64,000 bases of DNA, taken from a virus. The position numbers and the translations under genes are program-made. Shown piece by piece: positions 1 to 57,035 of this stretch (position 1 is the first letter of the stretch; every line of letters begins with the position of its first letter). The notes below the pieces were generated by a model. That model was given only the letters and a program-made list of their open reading frames with translations, was not told the DNA's origin and searched no databases. The stretch spans positions 1 to 64,000 of IMG/VR virus record IMGVR_UViG_3300037245_002806; one strand, given 5' to 3'.

Positions 1-241
1 ATCCGAATCCCGACCCGCTTTCTATATCACTGCCCCCCTTCGTCGGCGCCTTTCTCTGTTTTTCTTTCCCTGGCTTGGCTCCGGCTGTGGTTCTAACCGC
101 GTCCACCAACTCTAACCCCCGCTTGTGGAAATCCCAATGGAATTCGGTGATCCGGTTGGTGCACCGGAAGCAAAAATGATCGTCTTCGCAGTCCTGGCAA
201 TAGCATCGCCCCACCGCCCCGCATGGGAATCTAATCTCCAT
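1..241 (-). CDS. Hypothetical Cys-rich protein, runs off the left edge
   Basis: ATG at 241 overlaps the end of the DUF5131 gene; reads MEIRFPCGAVGRCYCQDC...GGSDIESG with no stop. Confidence 0.6.
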   Translation of the reverse strand, partial: MEIRFPCGAVGRCYCQDCEDDHFCFRCTNRITEFHWDFHKRGLELVDAVRTTAGAKPGKEKQRKAPTKGGSDIESGSGFG

Positions 242-986
242 GTGGGAAGCTCTTTCTTTCCTGGCCGTCGAGCATCGCGCCCGCGGCCTTCTTTCCAACT
301 CTGACCCCTTGGGAATTCCATGCGCCCCACTGTTTAAAGAAAAATGGCACCCCTGCGGCGTTGCATTGATCTCTAAGGCTCCGCACCCAATCGGGGCTCA
401 TCGGTCGCGCCCCTGGCCCGCTTTCCCCACCGACCACCACCCAATCTAGAACCCGTAACGCCTCGGTGGCGTCCACCGGCCCCAGTAACGGCTCGAAAGA
501 AACCCACCTTACCGTAGCCGGCGTTTGGCGCAACCACGGCGCCCGGTAGTCGAGGGTTGGCTGGTCCTCTGCTGAGATGCCTAGCCACGTGTTCGATGGT
601 GCCTCGATATCTTCGAACGCCTTCGCCATACGTTCCGCGCGCTTGGTAAGAATTTGAAAGGTGTGGTGTTTTGCCCTTTCTATACGCACCATTATCGAGC
701 AAAAGAACTGGCTCGGCACCTGCTCATGGAATAAATCGGACATCGAGCACACGAAGATCTTTCGTGGGCGCCGCAAAAGCAACGGCTGTTCTAGGCGCTC
801 GGGGTGTAAAGTAACGTTCCGCTCGGCGTTATTCGCCGTCCACGGGTGGAATTTGTTCCGCCGCCCCGATAGGATTAGGCGTTGATCCATTCGCTCGGCA
901 TAGCAATTTAAGCACCCTGGGCTTACCTTGCTGCACCCGACCACCGGATTCCACACCTCGTCGGTCCACTCTATTTTGGTTCCCAT
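231..986 (-). CDS. Phage Gp37/Gp68 family protein (DUF5131)
   Basis: TKIEWTDEVWNPVVGCSKVSPGCLNCYAE, FVCSMSDLFH, HTFQILTKR, SFEPLLG, DWVVVGGESG, FFKQWG signature motifs. Confidence 0.92.
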   Translation of the reverse strand: MGTKIEWTDEVWNPVVGCSKVSPGCLNCYAERMDQRLILSGRRNKFHPWTANNAERNVTLHPERLEQPLLLRRPRKIFVCSMSDLFHEQVPSQFFCSIMVRIERAKHHTFQILTKRAERMAKAFEDIEAPSNTWLGISAEDQPTLDYRAPWLRQTPATVRWVSFEPLLGPVDATEALRVLDWVVVGGESGPGARPMSPDWVRSLRDQCNAAGVPFFFKQWGAWNSQGVRVGKKAAGAMLDGQERKSFPHGD

Positions 987-993
987 GTGGTTT

Positions 994-1840
994 TTATTCC
1001 GCGTATGGTGGGCCGTTGATTAATTGCGACCGAATAACCGCTACCACTTCTTTGCACACCTTGTCCCGCGCCGGCTTGCTGCTCTTGCATCGCTCGGCCA
1101 TTTCGGTGGTAATCGCAATGTTTACCCCGAGCTTGAGGGTTTCGGTATGCTTCGGCTCGCCGTTCCCCGGCTTCGGTGGCGGTGGCCATTTTTTCGGCGC
1201 CAGGATTTTTCGCAGTTTTTTCATGGCCTTGCCCTCGTTCTCCTCTGCCGGCAAACGCTGCAATCCTGGCCCGGCGGGAAATCGGTACCCTCGCACTCGC
1301 AACGGGTTTCCTCTGAAGGTGGACCTTTTTCGAGTAGCTCGCCTACCAGATCCGCCACATCGGCGCATACCACCGCTCGAACCGCTGGAGACGCCTTGGA
1401 AAGCTCCACCATTCGGTTAGATATTGCGATCGAAACCGTGATCGTTTTCTGGTTTTTGGCTTGGTAGTCCTGGCGCTTTCCGTCTACGCTGTACCCCGAT
1501 ACCGTGATCATTCTTTGCCCCTTCCCGGTTGCTCTAGCTTTTCTTCCGCTCTTTCCGCTCGGGCTCTCCATTGATCCGAAATCGCCACCGCTTTGATGGC
1601 CCGTTCCTGCCACCCGTCGCCCCCGCCGGATTCCGGTGGACGCTTTTCGACCACAACCCGCACCGGCGCGCCCTCTTGGATCATAACCGCTAGATCCTTG
1701 GCTAGCACGGTAAAGGTAACGGCAAACAATTCGCCCACCTTGCCCTCCACCTTGACCCCTCTAACGGGGATCTCCTGGCCGTCCAGCAAAACCCGGCTCG
1801 AATGGACGTGGCCGCCCGGTGCGTATATCTCGACCTTCAT
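994..1840 (-). other. Three small tandem hypothetical phage genes (~994-1224, 1221-1511, 1508-1840)
   Basis: Overlapping ATGA stop/start tiling on the minus strand. Confidence 0.6.
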
Positions 1841-2742
1841 CCCTGGGCCTCATCTTCGGCGTCGGTTGCCTGCTCGAATAGCTTGCGCATCGCCTGGTTG
1901 GCCGTTAGCTCGTGGCCGTAGTGGGATCTCAACCATTCCAGCATTTCGCCCCACTCGATAAACTCCGCCGGCGTCTCGAACCCGAGCACATACCAATCTT
2001 TCCCGACCGGCCCGGCTGAGTACTCGGGATCGGCAACCGCCTTGCTTAGTGCCCCTTGCTCGACAAACCGGATAATCCGGCCCGCCGCGGTTTCCTCGTC
2101 CGGATAGCTCTCTCGAAGTAGCTTTACGAAGTCGTACCACTTCGCTTGTTGCTCCTCATTGTCGAAAATGATCTCGTACCGAATGATCGGCGTGCCTAGC
2201 CCTGGGCTCTTTTTGGGATCGTCTTCGGTGGTCGGTGGCGGTGGCTCGGGCTCGGTCGGTGGCGGTGGCTCCGTCTGCAAAAGGTCCGCGGTGATCCGAT
2301 CCAACGTCTCGGCGTCTATCGCCAAAACGTCGGGGGAAAAGTCGGGCATCTCTTCCATGAGCATTAGGGCTGTTTTGCCTAGCTTCTCTTCGTCTAACAC
2401 GCTCATGTTGGAGATCGTATTATCCCGTACCCGGTAAGCCGCGGCCTCTAACAGGTTTCCCACGAATGGCACTGCCGGCACGTGGGTATAACCGACCACT
2501 TTGGCCGCCCGCAACATCGCATGCCCCTTTTTAAGGGTAAAGCGCCCGTCTCCCGTCGGGAACAATGTAACAGGCTGTAACATGCCGTGATCGGTAAACG
2601 ACTCTGTGATAGCTTGGATCTGCTCTGGGCTGTGGGTGTTCTCGTTTTCTGGATCCTCGTCGATCAACTGCACATCCACTAAGAGCTTTTCGAGACCCGG
2701 CGCACAACTAAAAATCCGCTCTTCAGCTTTCTTCTTTGGCAT
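1837..2742 (-). CDS. ParB/Srx-like N-terminal domain protein with Pro-rich linker and duplicated C-terminal domain
   Basis: DPENENTHSPEQIQAITESFTDHGMLQPV...KGHAMLRAAK...YRVRDN matches the ParB-N pattern. Confidence 0.75.
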   Translation of the reverse strand: MPKKKAEERIFSCAPGLEKLLVDVQLIDEDPENENTHSPEQIQAITESFTDHGMLQPVTLFPTGDGRFTLKKGHAMLRAAKVVGYTHVPAVPFVGNLLEAAAYRVRDNTISNMSVLDEEKLGKTALMLMEEMPDFSPDVLAIDAETLDRITADLLQTEPPPPTEPEPPPPTTEDDPKKSPGLGTPIIRYEIIFDNEEQQAKWYDFVKLLRESYPDEETAAGRIIRFVEQGALSKAVADPEYSAGPVGKDWYVLGFETPAEFIEWGEMLEWLRSHYGHELTANQAMRKLFEQATDAEDEAQG

Positions 2743-5387: not shown

Positions 5388-5421
5388 AGCGCCTCCCTCT
5401 CTTGGCATAGTCCTTGCATGG

Positions 5422-9380: not shown

Positions 9381-9995
9381 TTATTCGGTTTCGGGAACCT
9401 CTCTCAACCCACCTTCTTTCGGGTTGCCCTCGGGCTCGCCTTCGACCACCGTTCCCGGCGCGTCGATTTCCTCTGTGGTCCCCGCCGGCACCTCGGCGTC
9501 GATAACAGAAAGCGCGGGTACCTCGTCGGGTGGCTCGGCGCCTTTGAAACACCCGTCTTCCCCGATGTACCCCTCGGTCACGGGCTCGCCGGCCTCGTCG
9601 ATCCCTTGCAAGGCGATCTCTTTGATCTCACCCGGCGCCAAGTCGCCGATATGCACCGTTTCCCCCGGTCGCGCCACGAACCCGCCGGGTGGAAGCTCGC
9701 CGGGCACGCTTTCTATATCACTGCCCGCCCCGACGGCTTGGGTTTTGGGCTTGGCCTCTTTTTGTAGCCACGCCCCGAGATAGTCGGGTAATTCGTCGGC
9801 CACCATGTACCCGAGAAACGCCCGCATTGCCTCGACCTTCGCTTGGGCGCATTGGTGCACATCGGTGGCTTTGTACTTCCACGGCAGACTGACCACCCCG
9901 GCCATGTTCTCGACCGCGGTTTGCCATGCCTCCGCTTCGGCATACTCGGTCTGGCTCGTGTCTTCGAGATTAATTTTAAACTCCATCGCCTTCAC
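9381..9995 (-). CDS. Hypothetical protein with acidic C-terminus
   Basis: 204-aa ORF tiled with neighbours. Confidence 0.65.
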   Translation of the reverse strand: MKAMEFKINLEDTSQTEYAEAEAWQTAVENMAGVVSLPWKYKATDVHQCAQAKVEAMRAFLGYMVADELPDYLGAWLQKEAKPKTQAVGAGSDIESVPGELPPGGFVARPGETVHIGDLAPGEIKEIALQGIDEAGEPVTEGYIGEDGCFKGAEPPDEVPALSVIDAEVPAGTTEEIDAPGTVVEGEPEGNPKEGGLREVPETE

Positions 9996-15657: not shown

Positions 15658-16076
15658 ATCGAGACCTCTGCCTGGCACTGCTCGCACACGATAAAACCGC
15701 CAATGTCGGGCTCTTTCGGATCGAACGCCTCAACCGTGGTGCACTCCTCGGCGCATGGTACTTTCTCGTAACACTCCGGGCACCCGTGCACGTGCTCCCG
15801 CCGCACTTCTATATCACCACCCGCCCGCGCTTCCAAGTCGATGTGTCGAGACCACCCCGTATGCCCGCAATCGGTGCAATAATATTGCCGTTCATAAAAC
15901 GAATTCCGCTGCCCCCCTTGGAATCGTTTGGGTTGTCGCATCTTCCCGGTAAGCACCACGCGATCACGCTGCCCGCCGCCAACCTGGGCTCGTTTCATAT
16001 ACCCAATGGTTCCCCATTTTTTGCGACACTTCGAACACCGAAAGAAAGTCGGTTGCCCGGTACCTGTCCCGCTCAC
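15651..16076 (-). CDS. Zinc-ribbon hypothetical protein
   Basis: Multiple CxxC pairs. Confidence 0.6.
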   Translation of the reverse strand: MSGTGTGQPTFFRCSKCRKKWGTIGYMKRAQVGGGQRDRVVLTGKMRQPKRFQGGQRNSFYERQYYCTDCGHTGWSRHIDLEARAGGDIEVRREHVHGCPECYEKVPCAEECTTVEAFDPKEPDIGGFIVCEQCQAEVSIC

Positions 16077-22155: not shown

Positions 22156-22517
22156 GATTTGCCCCCTTTAACTTCCTCGCGGTAGTCGGTACGGCTTTCT
22201 CGGCACGCGCATTCGCCCTCGTGCTCTTCTGGTAGGTTACATGTGCGGGTATGTGGCCATCCGACGGTGTGCGACAAATCCCGGCTTTCTATATCATCCC
22301 CCGCCTCGGTAGATACCCGAAAGCCCTGGGAAACCAAAAGCTCGACCACCGCCCGCTTGGCCCGGCTGTCGGCCCGGAATTCCACGGTTACCGGCTTTCC
22401 GGTCATGCTGTCGAGTAGGATCTTGCCCCGGATTTCGACGTCTTCGCCGCTTACCTGGTTGACTTTTATGTGGATCGATTCGATAAAAAGCTCGCATTCG
22501 GTTTGGATGCTAAACAC
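22152..22517 (-). CDS. Hypothetical protein with one C-x5-H-x-G-x-C motif
   Basis: CNLPEEHEGEC. Confidence 0.6.
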   Translation of the reverse strand: MFSIQTECELFIESIHIKVNQVSGEDVEIRGKILLDSMTGKPVTVEFRADSRAKRAVVELLVSQGFRVSTEAGDDIESRDLSHTVGWPHTRTCNLPEEHEGECACRESRTDYREEVKGGKS

Positions 22518-30676: not shown

Positions 30677-30796
30677 TTGCTTCACTTCTTTCTCATGCCG
30701 AAAGAGAAGGCGAGCGGGTCTTGGGGCTGGTCCACTTAACCGTTGGGCCGGCCCCAATTTTTTTTGCCCGGCGCGCTCTCTATATCACCCCCCGCC

Positions 30797-31045
30797 CTAG
30801 CCTGCGGGGTCGGTTGTTACGGCTTGGTTTGGTGCTACGTACCCCTCGACCGGGGCGAGCTTTCCGGCGTGTACTTGCATCTGTACCCACTCTCGCAAGA
30901 TGTATCGGATCAACTCTTTCATCGGTCGATCCTCCACCTTGGCCGCCTGCCTTAACATGTCGTATTCGCCTTGCTCTACTTCGCTGTAGACTTTTTTCGG
31001 CGAAAACATGCTATTAGCACGGGGCATTGTCATTGCTTTGCCCAT
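30797..31045 (-). CDS. Ribbon-helix-helix-like regulator
   Basis: VYSEVEQGEYDMLRQAAKVEDRPMKELIRYIL; AAGGAGG Shine-Dalgarno. Confidence 0.6.
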   Translation of the reverse strand: MGKAMTMPRANSMFSPKKVYSEVEQGEYDMLRQAAKVEDRPMKELIRYILREWVQMQVHAGKLAPVEGYVAPNQAVTTDPAG

Positions 31046-32906: not shown

Positions 32907-32941
32907 ACTTATAATATACCTCTTTCGTGGTCGGTTGTCAA
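32907..32941 (-). promoter_or_regulatory. Early sigma70-type promoter (leaderless)
   Basis: TTGACA-17-TATATT-ATAAGT-ATG. Confidence 0.85.
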
Positions 32942-32968
32942 GTATAAAATGGGTTTATTATGCGGTTT

Positions 32969-33208
32969 TTATCGTCGCCGACCGTCCCCGAATAAACGCA
33001 CGATCTCGGCCTCTTCCTGTGCCAAGGCCGCTTGTATCGTGCTCGGCGGTACGTTCCACATATCTTGCACGCCGGCGTAGTAGAATTCGGCCCGGTGCTC
33101 GGCATCGTGTTCCCCGGCCCACTGGTAGTAGTCTTCCAACTGCTCAGCAGTGTAAAGCCCTTCGCCGTCGATCCCCTCGAAAGCCGGTAACATTCCTGCT
33201 TGCGCCAT
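32969..33208 (-). CDS. Small acidic hypothetical protein
   Basis: AAGGTGAG Shine-Dalgarno. Confidence 0.6.
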   Translation of the reverse strand: MAQAGMLPAFEGIDGEGLYTAEQLEDYYQWAGEHDAEHRAEFYYAGVQDMWNVPPSTIQAALAQEEAEIVRLFGDGRRR

Positions 33209-33253
33209 GGTCTCTCACCTTTCTGGGGGCGCCCGTAGGCGCCCCGTTTCGGT

Positions 33254-33676
33254 TTACGCCGCGGCCATCTGGGCTTTGTGTGCCTTGGCGAACCCTTGGT
33301 GGCGGATATTGGAATTCCAGGTACGGGCAAAGCTCTTTTCGTCGCGCATTTCGCGGCGGTTGCTCACCATCTGGCTGCCTTCCCACTTAATCGCAACCCG
33401 GTAGTATCCGATCCCGTCCATCTGGATGCTCACGGGGTACCAGCCGTCGGCAAAGCCGTTGCAACCGGTGGCCAGCAAAAAGGTCATCTCCGGATCCCGC
33501 ATTAAGTCGGAACGTTGCTCGTAGTAGTGGGCGACCGAAACCATTTTTCGACCGTCGGGAGAAAGGCCGATACCCTCGATTGTCAGGTCCATGTAGGAAC
33601 CGTTGGAAATTTTGATGTGGAAAAACGAGTCGTTTTCGTGGCCGGCGTCTTTAATTATCCGTTCGATTTCTTTCAT
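33254..33676 (-). CDS. DUF1249/DUF6908-like protein
   Basis: YMDLTIEGIG...SVAHYYEQRSDLMRDPEM...WNSNIRHQG. Confidence 0.7.
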   Translation of the reverse strand: MKEIERIIKDAGHENDSFFHIKISNGSYMDLTIEGIGLSPDGRKMVSVAHYYEQRSDLMRDPEMTFLLATGCNGFADGWYPVSIQMDGIGYYRVAIKWEGSQMVSNRREMRDEKSFARTWNSNIRHQGFAKAHKAQMAAA

Positions 33677-33714
33677 TTCGCTTGCCCCTTTTCTGTTTCT
33701 TTGTTGCTTTCCAT

Positions 33715-33749
33715 ACTTATAATATAGCAACATTATGGGGTTTTGTCAA
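33715..33749 (-). promoter_or_regulatory. Early sigma70-type promoter (leaderless)
   Basis: TTGACA-17-TATATT-ATAAGT-ATG. Confidence 0.85.
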
Positions 33750-33763
33750 GAGAAAAAGGTGGT

Positions 33764-34439
33764 TTATTTGATTTTATTTTTGTCCCCCTCGTCCATAATA
33801 TCGAGCACGCTTCCGAGGTAGGTGGCTCTCGAAATTCTGGTCTCAACCACCTGGCCCCGCTTGTTGTACCGCTTTAACCGCCAGCGCATGCCGGAATCCG
33901 CCGGCCCCCTGACTACCTGGGTTTCCCATTCGCCGGCGGAGTAGGTGCCGAGCACCGCCCACGGCTTATCGCTTGTTGGCCCTCTCACTGGCCCCCCTCT
34001 GCCCGCCAGCGCCGGCACCGCTCCAAAACCAAGGCGTCAACCGCTTCCCGCGCGGCCTTCCGGGTTGGGAACACCGTTGGAATCTCGACCCCGCATGCCC
34101 CGTTGGTGACCCACCCGCGGCCCGTCCGGAGTTTTTCGATAAAGTGGTCCGGCCCGTATCCCGCCCACCGGTTAGATAAAACGTGCATATCATGGTTGTC
34201 TAGCATTATCCCTCGCTCCAAGGCCGGAAGCTATGCCGGGTGGTATCGTCGCACCTTACATGCCCGAGGTGGTCGCACCCGCAATCCCCGGTATGTACTA
34301 CAGTCCACCGGCCATCCATTCTCACGTGCATGTGCCCGCAATCCCGGCACGGCCCGGAATCGACTCCCATGCCACCGACGACGCCGCGATTTTCTACTTC
34401 GCCCCCGCACATCCTGCACTCAACTCGCTCGTTGTCCAT
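33764..34439 (-). other. Three small early genes (33764-34018, 33985-34221, 34206-34439) behind a variant promoter at 34440-34473
   Basis: TTGCTT-16-TATTAT-6-ATG; tiled ORFs. Confidence 0.55.
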
Positions 34440-34513
34440 AACCTAATAATAGCATATCAGGCGGATAAAGCAAGTCTTTTATAATTGTTTTTTTGGATTT
34501 ATTCCGGTGGGTT

Positions 34514-34540
34514 GGGAGCCCCCCGTGGGGCTCCCTCTTT
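34514..34540. terminator. GC hairpin, putative intrinsic terminator
   Basis: GGGAGCCCCC-CGT-GGGGGCTCCC followed by TCTTTT. Confidence 0.55.
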
Positions 34541-34795
34541 CCTACTCCTTACGCCGTCTCGAGATCGAGCACCGTTCTACGATGTCAACGATCTCCGAAT
34601 GGCCCTGGCGCCACCGTCTGACTAGGTGGATTACCCGACACGAAGGTCCGGCGCTCTTCGTGTGGCTCTTGGCGAAAAAGCGGCCTTCGTCCGTGTTTTG
34701 GACCCCACGCTCCCAATGACAGGCAACGCACCTGGCAAAGTAAGGCTCTGTAAGAGTAGGCTTTTTGGCGGTCGGTTCTTGTAGCAACGTTTTTA

Positions 34796-35311
34796 TCACC
34801 CCCTTTCGGCTTTCTGCTTTCTGTGGTTGGAGTTGTAGCGCCGGCTGGCCGCCTTGCATCGGTCGCAACGGCAACCTCGGCTCCATTCGCTAGTCGTCCC
34901 ATGGTTGCGGAGATCGCTCGGGCTGTATTTTTTCTTCCGCTTCCGGTTGTAATCCCCATGTGCTCTCGTACAATCCGGACATCTGCACCCGAGCCGATAT
35001 CCACTTGTGCTCCCATGCGTAGCTGTCCGCTCGTGCTTAAATCCCGCGTCCCCCCTCTCCTCGTGCGTCCTGCCGTGACAGGATCGGCATAGCAACATGC
35101 ACTTTGCCACCTCGGCCAGGAAACGATCGAGCCCGTAGGCTACTCCAGAGGATAAAATGCCAAAGCTCTTTGTTTTGGGATCGACGTGGTGGGTGACTAA
35201 CCCTTCCTTCGTCCCGCACCTGGTGCACTTTCCGCCGAGCAAAAGGATCGCCAGCGCCGTCCGGAAAGCTCGCCGGCGGTGTTTCCAGGCTTGGGTTTTG
35301 GAGGTGGGCAT
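34796..35311 (-). CDS. HNH endonuclease with two C-terminal HG-x6-GCRCxxC Zn-binding repeats
   Basis: CTRCG...THHVDP...KCMLLCRSCHGRTH; HGSTSGYRLGCRCPDC, HGTTSEWSRGCRCDRC. Confidence 0.85.
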   Translation of the reverse strand: MPTSKTQAWKHRRRAFRTALAILLLGGKCTRCGTKEGLVTHHVDPKTKSFGILSSGVAYGLDRFLAEVAKCMLLCRSCHGRTHEERGDAGFKHERTATHGSTSGYRLGCRCPDCTRAHGDYNRKRKKKYSPSDLRNHGTTSEWSRGCRCDRCKAASRRYNSNHRKQKAERG

Positions 35312-35363
35312 CTGTCCTTTAAGTACCATATAAGCCGGTAACTTGCAAGGTTTTTATGGAAGT

Positions 35364-35501
35364 CAGCCGGGTGGTTTATGCCCGGCTGCTCCCCAATGGT
35401 GGGCGATCGACAGCGACGATGACGCCCTCAAGGGGGGGCCTTGGGGCAAGCTCTGGGAATAGCCGCCGATCGCCCCTTTGCGCAGGAGGTTTCCCAGAGC
35501 T
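35364..35501. ncRNA. Candidate structured ncRNA (three hairpins plus a 9-bp loop-loop pairing)
   Basis: Stems 35364-71/35381-88, 35391-96/35441-46, 35449-59/35491-501; GGGCGATCG 35401-09 complementary to CGATCGCCC 35467-75. Confidence 0.5.
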
Positions 35502-35582
35502 AACGCTCAATCTGCATCGCAAGATAGTAGCACATTAAGCAAACGCCGCAAGCTAGAAACCCTATGGAATAGGCTTTGCTTT

Positions 35583-37514
35583 CTACGCGAAAAACCACAC
35601 CGCCGCGGCCAACGCCGCCAACGATCCGACCACCGCCACGAATAGCGCCATGCTGCCCGGTCTTCGGTCCATTTGCTCGAAGTCCATGGCCACCGTGTCG
35701 AGGTTCACCTTTTCCTCGGGATACCAGTCCCGCTCTTTCGCCTGGGGATACTCGTCCTCCAGTCGTATCCAATAGATTCTCCCGCCGTCGGCACACCCGC
35801 CGCGCCCGAGCACCTTGCCCGCCGCGGTGTAGTTAATGCCCGGCTTGGGGTTTATGTCCACCCGAACCAGATCCCCGATCTTAAATCTGGCCCCTTCCAT
35901 TGTTTTGCAGTGTTCCACGTACCCTTTTTGCATCTCCATCCCATGCCCCTTTCTGTGTCACCGCCCGCCCGCGCCTTCCGGCCCGGTACCGGCTTTTTAG
36001 ACTTTGCTGGCTACCAACCTGCCGGCCTCGTCGTAAACGTCGATCCACGCCCACCGCGCGGAAGTGACCACCCGGTAATCCCACTCGGGATCGCCCGTCT
36101 GGAAAAGCGCCGCCACGCGCTCGGCCTCTTTGTGCTCGTAAAATTTGTCCGGCCCGTCAATCCGCGGCATCTGCTTCCCCCTTCTGGTGTGCTTCCTTTT
36201 GGATAAAAGCCAAGCTCTCGTAATCCTGGTCGTGGAAAAAGATCCCCATAGCTCGCGGCGCATCGTGCCACTTCAGCGCCGCCAAAAGCCACTTGTAAAG
36301 GGCTTTTACCTTACCGATCCGCGGCATAATACTCCCCTTTCCACTGCATCGCCTTCGAGATACCTTCGAGCCAATCTTGCACGATCAAGGTACCGTTGAC
36401 CCCCTCGTCCCGCGCTTCGCGCACCCGCTTTTGGGTGATCTGCATCTGGAAAGCCAAAGCCTTTATCGTTACCCGGCGCCGGCGCATCATGCGCTTTATC
36501 GCCGCGCCGGCCAACCTCTGCTCTGCAAAACGTCGATCAAACATCGCCCCCCCTATTTGGTTTCGTCGATTGCCGCGAACATCGCCTTGTATCCCGCTTC
36601 CGTCGGGATTCCGTGCTCGTTTACCCACTTGCTCGGCTTGGTTTCCAACCTGGCGATCCTATCGGAAAGCCGGAACTGCCGCGCCGGCCAGGAAGGATCC
36701 TTCTCCCAAAGCCGGCCCGCCATGGCCGCCTCGATCGGTATCGCCTCGTCGTAAAGGTCTCCCAACTCGACCTCCAGATCGGAGATCTCTTCCTCATGGA
36801 GAAAGTCTAGATCGAGGTGCTCGGCGAGATTTTGCAAAGCGGCCTCTACCGCCTCGACCCGATCCGGCGCGATCCCCCGCTTCCGGTCTGCCGCTAAACC
36901 ATCGAGGAAGTACGCCGTTACCATCCATTGCGTTGTTATCTTCACCTGGCGCCCCCTTCGGCCCACTTTGCGTTGATCTGGCCGTCGGCCTCGATCCTTG
37001 CCAATTCGGGAGTATAGGACACGCTCGAAAAGTCGAACCGGTCCCACCGGACCAAAACAAAAGACTCAGACTCGTATGGCGCCGCCGGCCTTCCCGCGGT
37101 AACCGTTCCTTTGTAATCCCACAAGCTCGGGGTTTTGTAGGTAACTCTGTCGCCTTCTTTAAGATTCGGCATTTTCGGCTCCTAGATTTCGGAAACGTCG
37201 ATTTCTGCATCGGCGAGAATTTCCGCCGGCGAAGCAAACGCCAACCCGGCAAAAGGGTTGTGGGTAAGCGCCTCGTCATCGGCAGGATCGAAAAGTAGCT
37301 GCCAACCGGTACCAGGCTCCCCCGTAGGCTCAGGCTCGCCGCAACCGCCGCAACCGACGTCCTGCAAGTAAACCACATCGGCGAATTTGTCACAGCGGTA
37401 GGTGGTTCCGCAAGTGTCGCATTTGGCAAGCAAGTAGGCGTCCACTTCGTCGGTGTGGTCGCTAATCGTAAAGGTGTTCCCCGCGCCGCTCTCGTTTGCT
37501 TTGTTGTTTTCCAT
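35583..37514 (-). other. Early small-gene cluster (35583-35939, 35997-36170, 36311-36544 HTH-like, 36553-, 36942-37172, 37182-37514)
   Basis: Tiled minus-strand ORFs downstream of the promoter at 37515-37549. Confidence 0.55.
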
Positions 37515-37549
37515 ACTTATAATATAGCAACATTATGGGGTTTAGTCAA
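37515..37549 (-). promoter_or_regulatory. Early sigma70-type promoter (leaderless)
   Basis: TTGACT-17-TATATT-ATAAGT-ATG; near-identical to 33715-33749. Confidence 0.85.
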
Positions 37550-37595
37550 GAGAAAAATGGGGTTTATTTGGATTTATTTTACCCCCCCGTGAGCC

Positions 37596-37643
37596 AAAAA
37601 CCCCGGCGCCGTGGATCTGATCTTGTGGCCGGCGCCGGGGTTT
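37596..37643 (-). terminator. Putative intrinsic terminator
   Basis: CCCCGGCGCC...GGCGCCGGGG stem followed by a T-run on the minus strand. Confidence 0.55.
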
Positions 37644-37699
37644 CGATCTATACATACCAAGTATCGCCCGTAGTGGACTAGGATCCACTCATCGCTTGT

Positions 37700-38002
37700 T
37701 TAACATAAAGCCCCCTTTCGTTTTGCTCGCCGGTCGGCGTCCCTCTTAAAGATACAACCGGTACAAAGTACCATAAACCCGAGATCAAGATTTCGTTTAT
37801 GCTCATCCAGAGATTTCGCCCTCGGGAGCCCACCAAGGTCAGGATGTACCGGCCTGGCGTGGTGCCCGCACCTCGGGCGCCCGCAATCCAAGCAACGCCC
37901 GGTCGTTTTCCTTTTGCATCGGGCCATCCCCTTGCCCTTTGGCCCCGCATTGCACCGTTGGGGTTTTCGCCCCGCCGCCGCTTTTGCTTTGTCGTGTTCC
38001 AT
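37700..38002 (-). CDS. Small basic Cys-rich early protein
   Basis: Leaderless ATG behind the promoter at 38003-38037. Confidence 0.65.
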   Translation of the reverse strand: MEHDKAKAAAGRKPQRCNAGPKGKGMARCKRKTTGRCLDCGRPRCGHHARPVHPDLGGLPRAKSLDEHKRNLDLGFMVLCTGCIFKRDADRRAKRKGALC

Positions 38003-38037
38003 ACTTATAATATACGCTTTCTATAGGGCTTTGTCAA
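38003..38037 (-). promoter_or_regulatory. Early sigma70-type promoter (leaderless)
   Basis: TTGACA-17-TATATT-ATAAGT-ATG. Confidence 0.85.
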
Positions 38038-38047
38038 GAGAATAATG

Positions 38048-38839
38048 CTAGATTTTACCGTAGAGCGCCGGGATCGTCTCGGTCAAAAACTCGTGCCTGG
38101 CCGCATGGATGGAAGCAATCCCCCGGCGCCGGCTCTCAAGATCCACCCAACCCCGGAAGCGCCGCTCCGCCCGAGCCCAAAAAGCCAGCTTTTGTAAGAT
38201 GTGCTTTTGTATCCGATTTCGTTTCTTCACGGCATCCCCCTTTTAAAGCTCGTTCAAGGCGTCGGTAAGCTCGTCCGCCGTTTCGCAATTAAGAGAAAGG
38301 GTAAGCTCGTCCGCGTTAAACGGCCCCGCGGTACGAAGTGCTTTCGGCCCCCGAGTCACAATCGCGCCATGCTTGGCGTGCTTTTCCAACTCGGAAATGG
38401 AGCCCACGTGGATTCCATCTATCTGGATTTCGAAAAGATTAAACGAAAGGGTGGAAACCTGGAAACCAGCTTCCACTAAATTGCAAAGCCCCTTCAGCCG
38501 GGTAACGACCTTCGAACCCGAGGTGCAAACGACGTTGGAAACGAATCCCTCAGGCGCCCGGTGGCCTTCGAGCCCGTCGCGTTTCGCTAGAGCCACATGT
38601 AACCGTTTCAGCTCACGTACCGTAGCATTCTCTTTCTGTGCCATTGCCTATGCCTCCTCGATTTCGAGCCCGGTTTCTTTGGCCAACGCCACCGCTTTGG
38701 CTTTCGCGCCCGCCTTGGTTTTGCTAACCTTGGCGTTTACGATTCCCTCGCCATCGGTGATCCCCGTAATCCAACCGTGCATCATCGGGAAGTAAACCAC
38801 CTTGCGGCCCGTTCCGTTTTCGTTTTCTTTGTTTTCCAT
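38048..38839 (-). other. Three early genes (38048-38230, 38243-38644, 38648-38839) behind a promoter at 38840-38872
   Basis: TTGCAA-16-TACTAT-TAAGT-ATG (MENKENEN...). Confidence 0.65.
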
Positions 38840-38874
38840 ACTTAATAGTACCATATCTACCGGCGTTTGCAAGA

Positions 38875-39735
38875 GAATAATGCCCATTATTCGCATTTAT
38901 TCTCATCCTTAATAAGAGTAAATTAACCCCGCCGTACCCCCGTTTTGGCACCCGCCTTGCATGCGGATAGGGCGCCTATATCGGCCAGATGGCAGGATTA
39001 TTTTATGTGTTCCAAATCACCTTTTTAGCCGAATAGTGTTGCATCTTTAAAGGTGGGAAAAACCCATAGTTTTAGATCCTGTGCCACCTCGATCCGGGCT
39101 CGCTACATGACCCATGCCAGGAGAATTGTAAGGCTTTGCTTTCTACCCCATAAACGGCACCAATTATATGGATGGTCCGCCCACATCAAGCGCCATGCCA
39201 ACCCGAATCTACACCTATTATATACCGTGTTTTGGGTGTTTCTAAGTGCGCTTAAAATAAGGGTTTGGTGCGTTAGCGGCGAAATATCGAGATCACCATG
39301 CTAGGAGTCGTTTATATTTATTATCGGCCTTAAACGACCCCTCACGACGTCGAACAAAGCCTTTGTTCTCTAAGGGTTAGCGGGATTGTGGGTGTGGGGT
39401 TTTCACCTTTAAAGATTAAACGTAGAGATGCACACCTTATATGGATAGTTTGTGCGATTTGTCACACAACACATAATAAAAATAAATATTCCCGCGCGGA
39501 GCTTGAGGAAATCCTTTTTGGACTATTTTAGATATTTTAACTCTGACCTATCCGGTCGGGTATCCGGCACACCTCGGGCGGGCTCGCAATGATATAGATC
39601 ACACCTCCGATGTTTTCCTTGTTTTTCTCAAGAAACCGCCCAATGGGCCGCCCACTAATAGAGGATAGATTGCACGCTTCATGCCAACAATAAGGGTATA
39701 TCCCCCGGATAAAAAAGCCCTCTTATTGCATTATT
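38875..39735. other. AT-richer non-coding centre where transcription diverges
   Basis: No convincing ORF; 13-bp inverted repeat at 39043-55/39404-16; sigma54-like boxes at both edges. Confidence 0.6.
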
Positions 39736-39738
39736 TTC

Positions 39739-39773
39739 TTGACGCGGCCATATAAAGATGGTACCTTATATAT
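39739..39773 (+). promoter_or_regulatory. Early sigma70-type promoter (leaderless)
   Basis: TTGACG-17-TACCTT-ATATAT-ATG. Confidence 0.8.
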
Positions 39774-40271
39774 ATGGAAAGCAAGAAAGCGCAAAACGAA
39801 AACGAGGGAGAAACCATGACACACGAAATCCGAATTGCCAAGGGTAAGAAAAGCTGCGATAAATGCTCGGCCCATGGACTCTACTGGCACCAAAGCCGCG
39901 CCGGCAACTGGGTGTTATTCGAGTTGATCGACATCGTGGATGAGGCTGGCGACTCTGTAGATTCCACCCACCGCGCCCACTACGCTTACTGCGGCGCCGA
40001 CGTCGAGCAAGCGCCCGCCAAGGTTACCCCCGAAATCGACGCCGAAACCCGCAACGCTATCCACGAAGCGATCGGGGTTATCTACGATAATTGCGACGGT
40101 GCGACCCGCCGGGATGGCGCTGGCTTCTCGAAGCACGACGCCCGCTTTGGCCACGACCTTGCAAGGGCCGGCAGCCTGAGCAATAACATGGCCGCCGCTG
40201 GCCGCCGCATGGTAAAAAAATACCGCCGCCAGCTTACCGCGGCTGGCTTCGACCTCGACCGCTTGAATTAG
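39774..40271 (+). CDS. Hypothetical early protein
   Basis: CDGA..RDGAGFSKHD...KYRRQL C-terminal domain; alternative Shine-Dalgarno-led start at 39816. Confidence 0.75.
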   Translation: MESKKAQNENEGETMTHEIRIAKGKKSCDKCSAHGLYWHQSRAGNWVLFELIDIVDEAGDSVDSTHRAHYAYCGADVEQAPAKVTPEIDAETRNAIHEAIGVIYDNCDGATRRDGAGFSKHDARFGHDLARAGSLSNNMAAAGRRMVKKYRRQLTAAGFDLDRLN

Positions 40272-40287
40272 AGGGGGGATAGATACC

Positions 40288-40767
40288 ATGGCAAGTTTAT
40301 TCGACGTCCGGAGCAACGCGCTCCGACTCTTTAAAGAGCACGGGCTCGATGAGAAGGGTTGGAGCTTTGGCTTTGACAATGCAAAACGTAGATTCGGCCA
40401 GTGTAGCGCCGGCGCCAAGCGGATCACGATCTCGAAGCACCTGGCCGCCCTAAACACCTTGGAACGGGTGACCCAGACCATTAAACACGAGATCGCGCAT
40501 GCGCTCGCCGGCCCCGTTGGCCATGCCCGTGCATGGCGGATCATGGCCTTGAGGATCGGTTGTCCGCCTGTCCGGTGCTACTCTACCTCGGAGGTTGCTA
40601 CCCCGAGCGCGCCATATGAGGCTAAATGCCCCGGTTGCGGCATGGTGGCCAAAAAGTTTAAGCGCCCCCGCCGGCCTTCGTCCTGTGGTCGGTGCTCGCC
40701 CCGATACGACGCCCGTTTCCTTTTGACCTTTCTCGACGTGCGGGCTCGGCTCCGCCAGGGGAAATAA
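40288..40767 (+). CDS. SprT-like zinc metalloprotease domain protein
   Basis: FDNAKRRFGQC, KHEIAHAL (HExxH), GH..AW, C-terminal CPGC/CGRC. Confidence 0.88.
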   Translation: MASLFDVRSNALRLFKEHGLDEKGWSFGFDNAKRRFGQCSAGAKRITISKHLAALNTLERVTQTIKHEIAHALAGPVGHARAWRIMALRIGCPPVRCYSTSEVATPSAPYEAKCPGCGMVAKKFKRPRRPSSCGRCSPRYDARFLLTFLDVRARLRQGK

Positions 40768-40768
40768 C

Positions 40769-41023
40769 ATGTATCGAACGATACCCAACGGAATCGACCT
40801 TACAGCGATTAGACAATGGATGTGGGATCACGTTGACATGTATCCCACCGACGTGGATCGGTTGGTGCACCTCTACTACCTCGACCACGTTCTAGATACC
40901 GAGATTGAGGCCAGGATCGATACCGCCGCGGGGAAGGTGGACCCCGCCCGGTACGTCGCCTTGGAAATCCAAGAATATTTCGCCCGAGGTTGGAAAAATG
41001 AGAAAAAGCCACCCTCGAATTAA
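40769..41023 (+). CDS. Hypothetical protein
   Basis: Tiled ORF. Confidence 0.6.
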   Translation: MYRTIPNGIDLTAIRQWMWDHVDMYPTDVDRLVHLYYLDHVLDTEIEARIDTAAGKVDPARYVALEIQEYFARGWKNEKKPPSN

Positions 41024-41047
41024 AAGCATAATTATCGCACTTTTTCC

Positions 41048-41082
41048 TTGACAGAACCGGTAGAATATCGTATATTATAAGT
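41048..41082 (+). promoter_or_regulatory. Early sigma70-type promoter (leaderless)
   Basis: TTGACA-17-TATATT-ATAAGT-ATG. Confidence 0.88.
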
Positions 41083-42132
41083 ATGGAAAGCACAAAGAAA
41101 GGGGAAAGCACGATGACAGAAACACAGAGAAACGCTCTCCGCGCAATGGCCGCCCGGAACACCGGCGCCTTATTGGTTGGACCTTGGGGCGACCGTGAAG
41201 GCGCCAGTTGGTGCTGGCCGGAAACGGTACGGCTCTCCGACGATGCCGCCCGCGCTGTGCTCGCCCGCTTAGCCGAACTGGAAAGGAACGGACAATGACT
41301 AACGAAGAAATCGCAATGTTAGCGCAAGAGGTTTACCAACTCGCCGCGGAATCCACCCGCAAGGGCGGATCGTGGAATCCTGGTGACCTAAAAGGGTTCG
41401 ATACCGGTAAGGCGCAACGGGCTTTCCAGATATTGACAAAGGCCGCCGGCGATCTCGATACCCTGGCGAAAGAAGGGGATCACACCGAAGGTGAATGCGA
41501 AGTATGCCAAGGCGCCGCCGCCGGTTGCGTAACATGCGGTGGATCCGGGCAAGCCCTTTACTGCTTGCGGACGGGTTGTGGGAGACCGGCAACCCACTTA
41601 GAGAACGTGGCCGGCGAAAGCCACGCCTATTGCGACGAGTGCACCACTGGAGGTACCCGATGAACTGTAACGAATGTGACCGCAAGGTGGTAAGGCGAAA
41701 CGCCATCGGGCAGTGCCAATGGTGCTCGGCGGAAGAAGCGCGGATCCTAAACCGCGCCGAATCGATCGCCAGGGAAAAGCACTACACCGTCGCGGAAGTG
41801 AACCGCCGCGCGGATCTGGCGCTCGAATCGGTACGGCTGGCCGATGCCGCTTCGAAGGCCGGCCCGCACACCGTACCGCCTTGGTTTGCCGCTGAGAATC
41901 TAATCCTGGGGCCGGCGGAAGTCGCCGCCAGATACCGAACCAACCTGGCGATGGCGGGAGATGTAAAACCATGAGCATAATAATCGAGGTAGAAGAACAC
42001 GATCTTTGGGTAATCCGGTATGCGCTTAAAGTGCTCGCCCGCCGGGCTTTCTTGCCGCCTCTGCCGCCGGATGATTCCAAAACGCAAAAAGAAGCCGTCG
42101 AGGTTTTGCAAAAGCTCCACCGCCAGACGTAG
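41083..42132 (+). other. Four small early genes (41083-41298, 41295-41663, 41660-41974, 41971-42132)
   Basis: ATGA-overlapped tiling. Confidence 0.7.
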
Positions 42133-42236
42133 CGACTAGGGATCTCACCGAAGGGGGATGCTAAAAAACCACCACTCACGCCGGGTATGCTAAAATTTTA
42201 GCGGCAAAATAAATACAAAATAAATCCCTTTTTCTC

Positions 42237-42271
42237 TTGACAAAACCGGTAGAATATCGTATATTATAAGT
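42237..42271 (+). promoter_or_regulatory. Early sigma70-type promoter (leaderless)
   Basis: TTGACA-17-TATATT-ATAAGT-ATG; near-identical to 41048. Confidence 0.88.
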
Positions 42272-42559
42272 ATGGAAAGCAACAAAGAAACAAAGAAAAG
42301 CAAAGGGGAAAAAGCCATGACCCAGGAACAGATGGAGCAACTTATAGTAGCGGTGGACGACGGACGAATAACCGGTGAGTTTTTCGACGCCACGATAAAC
42401 GGTCGGGACCAATGGGTACCTGGCTCGGGCGGAAATGAGACCTGGACCCTGGCGCGAAATGGCCGCTCTTACCTGTACTGTTACAACCCGGCCACCCAGG
42501 AGCACGGTTGGCTGAACCAGAGCGATATAGTCGAGATGGAAAGCCCTTACGGGCTCTAG
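42272..42559 (+). CDS. Small early protein
   Basis: Leaderless start MESNKET; second in-frame Shine-Dalgarno-led ATG at 42317. Confidence 0.7.
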   Translation: MESNKETKKSKGEKAMTQEQMEQLIVAVDDGRITGEFFDATINGRDQWVPGSGGNETWTLARNGRSYLYCYNPATQEHGWLNQSDIVEMESPYGL

Positions 42560-42665
42560 ATAGAAGGGGGGCGAAAGCCCCCACCCCGGCGGACGAGGGG
42601 ATGCACCCCGCTTATTTAGGCTAGCGCCGGGACGGCATAATAAAACCCTGTTAGCTCGAACCCTC

Positions 42666-42690
42666 GGGGCGCGAAAGCGCCCCATCTTTT
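42666..42690 (+). terminator. Intrinsic terminator
   Basis: GGGCGC-GAAA-GCGCCC followed by ATCTTTTT. Confidence 0.65.
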
Positions 42691-42897
42691 TGCTCAGGGG
42701 AGCCCGCCCCGAGCCCGCCGTTTTTCGACCTCCCGCGCCGGCGCCAGGAGCACCGCATACTAACCCGCTGATAAGGTCTGTCTATCCCGATGCTACGCCG
42801 TTCCCAACTGGATAAAAGTGCACCGATTCCCGCCGTAGGCTCAGGGCCCGCCCTCATCGAGCCCTAAAAATAAATCCAAAATAAAGCACCTTTTTAC

Positions 42898-42932
42898 TTG
42901 ACAAAGCCGGTAGATATTGGTATATTATAAGT
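42898..42932 (+). promoter_or_regulatory. Early sigma70-type promoter (leaderless)
   Basis: TTGACA-17-TATATT-ATAAGT-ATG. Confidence 0.88.
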
Positions 42933-43249
42933 ATGGAAAACGAGAACGGGCGAAAAACAAAACTGGAAAAAGAATCCGCCGGCGAAAAGCAGAAATGCCC
43001 GACTTGCCGGTATCGCTGGCCGGGACATAACACAAGCTGCCCGGTGCTACGCTCGAATCGCCTACATGGAAAGAGTGAATAATGGACGAGATTAAGACAA
43101 TGCAGGATGGCAACAAGGTCCGCCACGAAGGGCCGTGCACGTGGTGCAAAACCTTCTCCACCCACCTGAAGCCCTCGGATCGCTGGATGCAACCCGGCGA
43201 ACTTATCTGCAACGGCTGCCAAAACCAACTAACCGAAAGCAAGAGGTAA
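42933..43249 (+). other. Two tiny Zn-finger-like genes (42933-43082 MENENGRK...CPTC...H..SC; 43082-43249)
   Basis: Below the ORF-track cutoff; TAATG overlap. Confidence 0.6.
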
Positions 43250-47041: not shown

Positions 47042-47954
47042 ATGTGAAAAACGAAAGCGAGATCAAGTGCTCGAAACATTGTGGCCGCGGCTGCACCCGG
47101 AAAGAATACGAAACCGCGGAGAAAGGCGCCCTCAAACTCGCCCGCCGGCTTGGCAAAGGGTGGAAACCCGACGTTTGGGAAAATCTCGGCTGGCACTATG
47201 CCGCCCGCCGCGGTGGAGTGCGAGTGCACCCACATCCTACCGGCCCGCCCGGTTTTACCGCTTACCTTAATTACCAAAAGAGCCCCGGTGGTCGGTGGGT
47301 TGCCTCTGCGAGCACCCCCCAGAAGGCCATTACCGAAGCTCTGGCGATTGCGAGAATGGAGCGAGACGAAATCGCCAAGGCCGTTCGAAAAATCGAGCAA
47401 TATTTAGAGGAAGATTAATGCCCTACCCTAAAATCCGCGATCCCGAGATCACTATCCCGATCCCCTGCAAGCGTCATCGGGAATATGGGGGAAAGAAAGC
47501 CCCGACGAGCGGTTGCACTATCTGCGAGATCTTCTACCTGGAGCGCCGTACCGCCATGGCCGAAGTAAAGGCCGCGCTCCGGTTGCTCGACCGATATGGG
47601 GCCGTCGATTGGTACGAAGGCGGGTACCCAACGCCGGGCCTCTCGGATATGCGGATAAAAACCCCGCCGTGGATGTCACACGGGCGGACCCTGGTAAGCA
47701 ATAGCGGCCACCGGGAACGGCAAAACGACGGGTGTTTGCTGTACGAACGGTTGCGCCGGCATCCGAGGTAACTCTATATCACCCCCCGCTTACGAAAGGT
47801 TGCGGCGATGCAAAAGCAAAAATGTAAACGGTGCGATCGCGTCTTTTGGACGAGGGGGAAAGCCCTCTGCAAGCGATGCCTGCGGATTTTAGAAAGGCCG
47901 TTAACGCCGAATGGCAAGGATCTGATGGTAAATTGGAATCGCGGAATCTTCTAG
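47042..47954 (+). other. Three small genes (~47042-47418, 47418-47771, 47808-47954 Zn-ribbon)
   Basis: Tiled plus-strand ORFs converging on the late operon. Confidence 0.55.
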
Positions 47955-51674: not shown

Positions 51675-51683
51675 GGTGTCTCC

Positions 51684-52040: not shown

Positions 52041-52048
52041 CTTTCCCT

Positions 52049-52300: not shown

Positions 52301-52337
52301 GGGCCGTCGCCCCCCTTTCTATATCACCACCCGCCTT

Positions 52338-52748: not shown

Positions 52749-52776
52749 TTGATTTTTTTCCTTTCCTTCCCTGTTT

Positions 52777-53184: not shown

Positions 53185-53196
53185 TTTCTTCCCTCT

Positions 53197-55503: not shown

Positions 55504-55512
55504 GGACCCCTC

Positions 55513-55878: not shown

Positions 55879-55883
55879 GGTTT

Positions 55884-56390
55884 TTAAACCTCCTCGTAGG
55901 CTCGTTTGAGCCAACCGTTTAGGAAAACTTGCTTCTCTGGCTCCACCGCTGCCAAAAGCCGGTAAAAGCCTGCTTGCTCGCTCCGAATCGAGGTGATCAA
56001 CGGCACCTCGCTTGCCTTTTCTGCCGCATGGAACGATATCGGCCCCAAGGCGCCGTCGTCATCTACCCAATGGCAACCGTTCGCCCGCAATGCCCGTTGG
56101 AAGATTCGATGTGCTTGCCCCGGCCCCGTGTTTACGGCCATGTCGAAAACTTTGGTCGCAAGGCTTTGGGGCTCAAGCTGCCCGTACCCGTACCGTTCCC
56201 AAAAATGTACTTTGTAAAGCTCCACCGCGTCGGTCCTGGTAATCTCTCGCGGGTGTCTGCTGTCCCCTATCCGGTGGAGAAACCGTGCCGAAATCCCGTA
56301 ATTAGTCGCCCCGCCAGGATCTTTCGGGTGATCGATGTATCCGCCCTCGTTCTTTAAAACCGTCTTGATCGCTTCGTCGAATTCGCTCAT
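55884..56390 (-). CDS. Endolysin, glycoside hydrolase family 108 with peptidoglycan-binding C-terminus
   Basis: NEGGYIDHPKDPGGATNYGIS, FDMAVNTG, DDGALGP, FLNGWLKR. Confidence 0.93.
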   Translation of the reverse strand: MSEFDEAIKTVLKNEGGYIDHPKDPGGATNYGISARFLHRIGDSRHPREITRTDAVELYKVHFWERYGYGQLEPQSLATKVFDMAVNTGPGQAHRIFQRALRANGCHWVDDDGALGPISFHAAEKASEVPLITSIRSEQAGFYRLLAAVEPEKQVFLNGWLKRAYEEV

Positions 56391-56483
56391 TTTTCTTTTT
56401 CTCCGAGAGCGCCGGCGGGCGCGCGCTATCACGCCAATTAGATAGGACGTTAAAGCCCCGCCGGCGCCTCTGCCCGAGCAGGT

Positions 56484-56789
56484 TTACTCGGGACGGCCCT
56501 TCGCCTTTGCTTTAAGTACCTGCGAAGCTCGAAGCATCCCGAAAGCCACCGCCGCGATTCGGTCTGCGATGGCGTCGTCATCCGAAGGATCCCCCGGATT
56601 GCCTCGAACAATAAAACTGACCGTCTTTGCCGATTCCAAAGCAATCTCTGGGATCGCGCGAATGTCGCCCAAGTCGGCCCCGTCGCTGAGCCTTTCCTGG
56701 GCAAGCTGGATCGCCCGGTACATGGGCTCGACCCCGAGGTGCTCGTCTGGCGATAAATCGACATTGCTTGGATCATAGTCAGGTAACAT
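56484..56789 (-). CDS. Hypothetical protein in lysis cassette
   Basis: GGGAGG Shine-Dalgarno before MLPDYDP. Confidence 0.6.
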   Translation of the reverse strand: MLPDYDPSNVDLSPDEHLGVEPMYRAIQLAQERLSDGADLGDIRAIPEIALESAKTVSFIVRGNPGDPSDDDAIADRIAAVAFGMLRASQVLKAKAKGRPE

Positions 56790-57018
56790 TTTTTCCTCCC
56801 GGTTTAAGTAAACGTGCGACAAGTAACCCAAGGATCGCCCCCAGGAAACCCGCCGCCCCTTGTGGGATCTCTATCCCAAAAAGCGTAAATATCCACACCA
56901 CGAAAGCCGTGCTGCCGCCGACGGTCCCGACCAACGCCAGGTCACCACCGTTTAGACGGTAAGCGCCTTTGTACCTCTTGGGCAAAACCTCCACCGCGCG
57001 CTTTAGCATTTCCGCCAT
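56779..57018 (-). CDS. Holin-like two-TM membrane protein
   Basis: Two hydrophobic helices and a basic C-terminus, next to the endolysin. Confidence 0.6.
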   Translation of the reverse strand: MAEMLKRAVEVLPKRYKGAYRLNGGDLALVGTVGGSTAFVVWIFTLFGIEIPQGAAGFLGAILGLLVARLLKPGGKNVT

Positions 57019-57035
57019 TCTATATCACCACCCGC

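Follow-up and report, generated by a model that had tools for sequence, protein, structure and literature searches.

What is a short polar sequence doing when it recurs along a phage genome, always in one orientation? The question is raised by the IMG/VR virus record IMGVR_UViG_3300037245_002806, in which an initial reading of the first 64,000 nt (bases 1-64000 of the 99,905-bp record, referred to here as the window) had picked out nine copies of one motif and taken them for a genome-wide cis-acting signal. Analysis of the whole record supports that general view. The motif is a 23-nt element present in 14 strong copies, and we infer that it is probably a phage-specific class of middle and late promoters, with its function, its start site and its trans-acting factor all part of that inference. 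The promoter consensus is most likely new, in a new lineage, while the kind of element is one already known. Because the ends of the record repeat 24 bp, it represents a circular, complete assembly of 99.9 kb. It comes from an uncultured, siphovirus-like tailed phage of ~100 kb with a G+C content of 56% and 16% non-coding DNA. The genes discussed are codon-score calls with predicted start codons, and ~90% of them lie on the minus strand, the plus-strand exceptions being a block at 39.8-47.8 kb and one SNF2 helicase gene.

Alignment of the 14 copies gives the consensus RGGSGGGNRRTGATATAGAAAGC, a single contiguous conserved block of 23 nt carrying ~30 bits. Upstream of this block, no position between -50 and -10 carries more than 0.6 bit of information, and nothing is conserved beyond +14. 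Within it, TG-A-TATAGA is invariant in 14/14 copies, with the TG preceding TATAGA by one base; the base after TATAGA is a purine in every copy, and a G is found 7 nt after TATAGA in 9 of the 14. The core is a 9-base A+T stretch, with a G-rich block (GGSGGG) upstream and an AAGC tail. The 14 strong copies, without exception on the minus strand, score 28-38 bits with a position weight matrix (PWM). Neighbouring copies are separated by 2.5-17 kb, in most cases by 4.5-11 kb, over ~83 kb of genes that point the same way and contain few strong terminators. A search using nhmmer and a hidden Markov model built from the copies separates these 14 (E <= 0.004) from marginal matches (E >= 0.4) at 35949, 26327, 25301 and 67929 on the minus strand and from a core-only plus-strand match at 39586. 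The sequence RTGATATAGA occurs 14 times on the minus strand and once on the plus strand of the whole genome; chance would give 0.05 occurrences of the 10-base core, and no dinucleotide shuffle contained more than one.

The nine positions first reported for the plus-strand form TCTATATCAY (21, 9712, 15808, 22288, 28229, 30779, 47773, 52318 and 57019) are exact. A core in the opposite orientation had been described near 39590 as partial; it is present, at 39589-39598, but as an exact 10-base core with a misplaced G-run. Likewise, the interval of 31-47 kb said to be empty is empty of strong copies only, since a degenerate copy lies within it (Table 1).

The location of the copies relative to genes is far from random. 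Measured to the next annotated start in the same orientation, the distance has a median of 88 nt, compared with ~540 nt for random placement, and 9 of the 14 lie within 130 nt of such a start where 2.0 are expected (P < 5e-5; 0 of 20,000 simulations reached either value). Eight copies are non-coding in a genome that is 16% non-coding. Seven copies sit at junctions where the stop of the preceding gene directly adjoins or overlaps the motif's 5' edge, with the following start 0-36 nt past TATAGA. Among the six in-gene copies, four (15817, 22297, 28238 and 96488) lie 73-133 nt before the next gene, and the two mid-gene copies (9721 and 85568) are followed shortly by in-frame GTG starts. The strong copies are co-oriented with the surrounding genes except for the terminal copy, 47782. 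The window had been thought to hold four intergenic copies and five in coding sequences; the gene calls give five (21, 30779, 47773, 52318 and 57019) and four (9712, 15808, 22288 and 28229), respectively. The intergenic copies were also said to come just after a stop codon, which does not apply to copies 21 and 47773, at 191 and 159 nt past a stop.

The six in-gene copies demonstrate that the constraint acts on the DNA and not on the protein. They read GAT-ATA-GAA or GAG and encode D-I-E, as first noted; no other reading is available, since a TGA or TAG interrupts the motif in both remaining frames. All six use ATA for Ile, although it is the least frequent of the Ile codons (17%), and 6 of the 10 DIE tripeptides in the proteome are motif copies. 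In 300 synonymous-codon shuffles within genes the mean number of in-gene copies was 0.17 and the maximum 2, against the 6 observed. Copy 85559 (= 85568) falls in a variable linker of a 969-aa protein, an indel-rich stretch, and relatives of this protein at 95% and 74% identity keep G-G-D-I-D and G-G-S-D-I-E while neighbouring residues vary. On the basis of protein alignments, through which conservation was judged, the motif appears to be conserved among close relatives.

A separate signal marks the early region. Seven near-identical cassettes of ~50 nt, each opened by a T-rich stretch and with the spacing TTGACA-17-TATATT-6-ATG, are confined to 32.9-43 kb and directed outward from a non-coding hub at ~39 kb. 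Their sequence suggests near-consensus host sigma-70-type promoters with the ATG at the expected transcription start, so that the early genes would be leaderless and begin Met-Glu. Between 30.8 and 47.7 kb there is no strong copy of the 23-mer on either strand, and no motif copy of 8 bits or more overlaps any of the seven cassettes.

Of the candidates listed originally, a late promoter fits these data best: the copies are start-proximal, strong ones are absent from the host-type early block, and their geometry is that of an extended -10 element. Indeed, a phage promoter class is the most economical explanation because it accounts together for the A+T core with extended -10 geometry, the separate early signal and the start-proximal position. 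The division into two signals in separate regions, with the cassettes at 32.9-43 kb and the strong motif copies elsewhere, is part of the support for this assignment. The TG lies one base before the hexamer, as in extended -10 promoters, and no -35 element is discernible. A sigma-54 promoter was also considered and rejected by hand, as the GG-to-GC spacing is off by one.

In the mechanism we propose, the 23-mer would drive the middle genes (recombination and replication) and the late genes (head, tail and fibre). After the early phase, host RNA polymerase would be switched from -35/-10 promoters to this -35-less class by a phage product made early. This could be a highly diverged sigma-like factor, or else a blocker of sigma region 4 acting with an activator that reads the GGSGGG block. 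The segment TGATATAGA would serve as an extended -10-like melting element with a TGnTATAGA core. Transcription could start ~7 nt after TATAGA, at the position that is G in 9/14 copies, which fits sigma-type geometry; alternatively, it could start at the purine directly after TATAGA, in which case two or three transcripts would be leaderless. The latter start matches copies 80903 and 57028, in which an ATG directly adjoins TATAGA, and the leaderless early design. The in-gene copies would be internal promoters, for example before the in-frame GTG of the 969-aa protease-scaffold gene. In a less likely version of the proposal, a phage RNA polymerase from an unrecognised family would use the element as a T7-style promoter. 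Here the 23-mer would be one contiguous promoter with its start at or next to TATA, and the reader would be an enzyme or specificity factor of an unrecognised family among the ~40 unannotated early proteins. We consider this doubtful; if true, it would represent a new phage takeover of transcription without a known RNA polymerase or sigma fold.

Several observations weigh against a promoter class, and they concern both the element and its reader. The TAnnnT form of the -10 hexamer is not found: all copies have TATAGA, compared with TATATT in the phage's own early promoters, and TATAGA is without the T at -7 that a sigma-70-type -10 needs. Because this final T of TAnnnT is missing, unaided host holoenzyme should use TATAGA poorly. 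The conserved G-rich block and AAGC tail also call for a reader. Copy 47782 has no gene to drive and is unexplained by a promoter unless a short RNA is made. Past the plus-strand SNF2 interruption of the late block there is no strong copy upstream of the portal gene. The two copies in which the ATG directly follows TATAGA do not fit a start 7 nt downstream, and the plus-strand core at 39589, without a G-run at the right spacing, is not covered by this explanation. In addition, relatives of the 969-aa protein at <=57% identity are without the motif-coded residues, so that wider conservation is unproven, and RecT homologues at <=59% identity have no D-I-E in the tail.

The main interest of the system is that no known polymerase or sigma factor was found encoded that would read the 23-mer, and this counts on the same side. 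A six-frame search gave no PF00940 match for a T7-like RNA polymerase, a family that the control genomes could not show; hmmscan of the ten largest proteins was negative for such an enzyme, and a regex search found no T7-type motif B or C in any frame. Sigma-70 regions 2 and 4 (Sigma70_r2 and Sigma70_r4_2) had no match in six frames with working controls, although very divergent sigma-like proteins would escape these models. The DxDxD signature of two-barrel polymerases matched only acidic linkers. Pfam and PHROGs searches of the early proteins returned no regulator besides one weak Arc-like match (E 0.0027). PDB sequence searches with four early proteins gave no match, and no gp39- or gp76-like protein was recognised.

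The ribbon-helix-helix (RHH) proteins that the original prediction offered as binders receive little support. The protein at 30797-31045 is the source of the weak Arc-like match; a single-sequence model of this 82-aa candidate shows two helices (pLDDT 73) and has no Foldseek match. The one near 18898 has no match at all. An asymmetric 23-mer without internal repeats is an atypical RHH operator, and an RHH protein as the binder is speculative.

Promoters with part of this architecture are known from other phages. In the Thermus phage P23-45, the early protein gp39 displaces sigma region 4, which shuts off -10/-35 promoters while the extended -10 phage promoters stay active (PMC3950348); host RNA polymerase modified by gp39 and gp76 uses these promoters for the middle and late genes. 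A two-barrel DxDxD signature revealed the cryptic polymerases of P23-45 (PMC10770324). Both phages are long-tailed siphoviruses with a -35-less class that places TG one base before a TATA-type hexamer and serves later genes (PMC3950348, PMC10770324). They differ in that the present hexamer, TATAGA, is without the T at -7, that the GGSGGG block and AAGC tail extend the signal to 23 contiguous nt, and that here early phage genes, not only host genes, use -35/-10 promoters. With T7/SP6-type promoters the motif shares ~23 contiguous conserved bases, a TATA just before a purine, a scarcity of terminators, and many one-orientation copies that occupy gaps or the 3' ends of the genes before them. It differs from them in having a G+C-rich rather than A+T-rich upstream part and in the absence of a T7-like polymerase from the searches above. 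It also loosely resembles the SP6 promoter (GGTGA...TATAGAA), out of register by 3 nt.

Other kinds of dispersed, oriented sites have to be weighed against a promoter. The original prediction listed stoperators, asymmetric sites where a bound phage repressor stops elongating polymerase in one orientation; mycobacteriophage L5 and other Cluster A phages have them. The dispersed, asymmetric copies locked to the direction of transcription, often in short gaps past stops, match the published pattern (PMC9283540), and copy 47782, which closes the late block and points towards the convergent early-right genes, would suit a roadblock. Cluster A stoperators are, however, 13-mers that double as operators of the early lytic promoter in a temperate phage. 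Here the motif is 23 nt with an A+T melting-type core, six copies lie in genes (two of them mid-gene), no helix-turn-helix (HTH) or immunity repressor was recognised among the early proteins by Pfam or PHROGs, and both tyrosine (PF00589) and serine (PF00239) integrases are absent from the complete genome, with working controls. Moreover, a supposed repressor could not silence the early genes, because no copy overlaps their seven promoters. The missing integrase and the missing early-promoter copies weaken this candidate, which we regard as improbable. We attach a similarly low probability to an ops-like pause or loading site, at which the non-template strand would recruit an antitermination or processivity factor along very long operons. 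The 5' half of the motif has GGCGG in common with the RfaH ops element GGCGGTAGCGTG (PMC5995543), a -10-like sequence could cause sigma-dependent pausing, and the intervals between copies on long co-directional gene runs with few strong terminators would suit such a site. Only 8 of 12 positions match, however, when the motif is set against the 12-nt ops GGCGGTAGnnTG: T6, A7 and the final TG spacing differ, and the A7 that is essential for RfaH is T here (PMC5995543). Furthermore, ops sites sit in operon leaders rather than every few gene junctions, and the association with downstream starts is not predicted. No NusG/RfaH-like protein (NGN + KOW) was found, the only KOW-like match being sub-threshold, in a 135-aa protein; a NusG-like identity was rejected for this protein, which matches repeat units of giant proteins.

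Strand exclusivity invites comparison with the one-strand nicks made by a site-specific nickase in the virion DNA of T5, phiKMV-like phages and phage tf. In phage tf there are 14 nicks, all on one strand and at a fixed consensus (PMC3517423), just as all 14 strong copies here lie on one strand, including 47782 against the local gene direction, and the genome encodes at least two HNH endonucleases. With ~90% of the genes on that strand, however, exclusivity hardly discriminates. Known nick consensuses are shorter, at 7-19 nt (PMC3517423). Such sites are not reported at gene junctions, whereas the copies here are strongly start-proximal, and nicking explains neither this proximity nor why the minus-strand early-left block has no strong copy; we consider it very unlikely. 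Should the copies nevertheless be nick or roadblock sites, their close association with gene starts would in turn be a novelty among such systems. Also very unlikely, and the least probable of these four rivals, is a signal at the RNA level, which could be a strong, extended Shine-Dalgarno, a start-associated sequence or a site of mRNA processing. Nine of the ten bases of GGGUGGUGAU could pair with the 3' end of 16S rRNA, and an ATG or GTG lies 5-9 nt after GGTGAT in 4 of the 14 copies. The other 10 have no start codon at Shine-Dalgarno distance, so that the copies cannot all be explained as Shine-Dalgarno sites, which had been named as an outcome that would undo the claim of a genome-wide signal. 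AAAGG or GGAGG sites are present at several of the downstream genes themselves, GGTGA is found before just 2 of the 103 gene starts (the usual sites being AAAGG, AGGAG and GGAGG), and TATAGAAAGC is conserved without a Shine-Dalgarno reason. The start-associated sequences of Cluster K mycobacteriophages are reportedly asymmetric repeats in ~10-20 copies, co-oriented and just upstream of starts, with a ribosome-binding-like part; they always lie a few bases from the start, whereas the distances here range from 0 to ~130 nt and 4/14 copies fit. It is consistent with an RNA signal that the motif is unpaired in most predicted folds, but folding of 13 copies with their flanks gave no common structure (z -1.85 to +1.29), which also speaks against a structured RNA or RNase III site, and cleavage within six coding regions would be costly. 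Finally, the length of 23 nt and the tie to gene junctions make a Chi/KOPS-like signal, also among the original candidates, unlikely.

If the promoter assignment is true, the phage runs a two-class programme in which host-type, leaderless early cassettes are followed by a phage-specific 23-nt class, and a product of the early phase must recognise a promoter that has neither a -35 element nor the usual final T in its hexamer. The copies would then also provide an operon map for a lineage of ~100-kb phages to which no cultured phage is related and in which most genes are unannotated. Being compact and highly specific, the 23-mer is a handle for finding its factor. The coordinates of the copies and of the early-region features are collected in Table 1.

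Table 1. Motif copies and early-region features, with positions in the record; scores in bits are from the PWM, and two numbers joined by an equals sign name the same copy.
Feature	Coordinates	Strand	Description
Strong copy 21	17..39	-	34.3 bits; intergenic; 191 nt past DUF5131 gene; ~43 nt upstream of putative small-terminase open reading frame (ORF) across the circular junction
Strong copy 9712 (= 9721)	9708..9730	-	34.1 bits; inside 204-aa ORF, in linker G-S-D-I-E; in-frame GTG at +4 and +34
Strong copy 15808 (= 15817)	15804..15826	-	31.8 bits; inside 141-aa ORF, G-G-D-I-E; next annotated start (15687) 121 nt on
Strong copy 22288 (= 22297)	22284..22306	-	34.6 bits; inside 121-aa ORF; next start (22155) 133 nt on
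Strong copy 28229 (= 28238)	28225..28247	-	32.0 bits; in low-complexity C-terminal tail of RecT; next start (28126) 103 nt on
Strong copy 30779	30775..30797	-	32.5 bits; first after early-left block; touches stop of RHH-like gene; heads YqaJ exonuclease, RecT, Dam and primase-helicase genes
Strong copy 47773 (= 47782)	47769..47791	-	28.1 bits; 159 nt past last late gene; faces 3' end of plus-strand block; no ORF after it
Strong copy 52318	52314..52336	-	36.9 bits; occupies gap between stop (52338) and ATG at 52300
Strong copy 57019 (= 57028)	57015..57037	-	35.4 bits; overlaps stop of upstream gene; ATG directly after TATAGA (79-aa ORF)
Five strong copies beyond the window	67259, 75461, 80894 (= 80903), 85559 (= 85568), 96479	-	core positions
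Degenerate copy GGTGACACAGAAAGG	35948..35970	-	23.5 bits, nhmmer E 0.67; 12 nt upstream of ATG at 35939, inside early-left block
Marginal in-gene copy	26323..26345	-	17.8 bits, nhmmer E 0.58; significance uncertain
Core-only copy	39580..39602	+	9.6 bits; in divergent non-coding hub, ~180 nt upstream of first plus-strand early gene; exact core, G-run displaced
Early block	32913..43000	both	seven near-identical cassettes TTGACA-17-TATATT-ATAAGT-ATGGAA; no strong motif copy
Minus-strand cassettes	starts 38037, 37549, 33749, 32941	-	
Plus-strand cassettes	starts 41048, 42237, 42898	+	
Putative RHH (Arc-like) protein, 82 aa	30797..31045	-	last early-left gene; speculative candidate binder

The exceptional copy 47773 has a minus-strand hairpin and U-run at 47683-47667, ~100 nt downstream of it. 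Together they could yield a ~100-nt RNA antisense to a weakly coding plus-strand ORF at 47295-47771; the predicted short RNA has no unusual structure (z = 0.03). Alternatively, the hairpin could be the terminator of the late block, and the copy, at 28 bits, could be weak or decaying. A decayed copy may also lie near the portal gene: the A+T-rich divergent gap at 90578-90765, between the plus-strand SNF2 gene and the minus-strand gene ahead of the portal, holds GTGGTGGTAGAATGAGG, which resembles the motif minus ~4 bases (GATA).

The 969-aa protein is encoded at 84514-87423 on the minus strand, between the portal and the major head protein, and its distant homologues carry an S78 prohead-protease domain. 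Use of the GTG 16 nt after copy 85568 would give a nested 342-aa C-terminal product, which our analysis suggests is scaffold-like. This product can be likened to the nested scaffold genes C/Nu3 of lambda and I/Z of Mu.

The gene content of the genome is otherwise that of a tailed phage. Its structural genes encode a large terminase, a portal with a MuF domain, the 969-aa protease-scaffold, the major head protein, a 1757-aa tape measure and fibre-like proteins, and it also carries genes for a YqaJ exonuclease, RecT, Dam and a primase-helicase as well as a DNA-modification operon. No cultured relative was found, the closest portal identity being 27%; portal-based scans gave no close relative in IMG/VR or in GTDB genomes and only three short contigs in JGI. 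The exact motif gave only isolated chance matches in viral contigs and in genome contigs, and a literature search with the core sequence returned unrelated primers only. Scans of the whole genome for tRNA and Rfam families gave no match. A ParB_N-like gene is present, given which a plasmid-prophage lifestyle may be possible.

Two early proteins have repeat-related features. A 220-aa protein (43254-43916, plus strand) has a helical C-terminal domain after four CxxCxGxG repeats that resemble the zinc-finger region of DnaJ, and has no family match. The 135-aa protein mentioned above (32406-32813, minus strand) matches as many as 28 repeat units in giant proteins (2,000-3,000 aa) of a representative library, and from its sequence it looks like a single free-standing repeat module. 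A 1246-aa orphan protein resembles a lectin-type fibre protein in the ESM Atlas. A strong minus-strand hairpin with a T-run at ~93092-93124, directly after a fused sucrose-phosphate synthase/phosphatase-like gene and opposite the end of the SNF2 gene, is likely the terminator that closes the terminase-modification unit. Finally, the late region contains a lone TTGACA-16-TATTTT at 82256-82283 on the minus strand, within 824 nt (81595-82417) where no gene was called; it may be a host-type promoter or mark a small uncalled gene.

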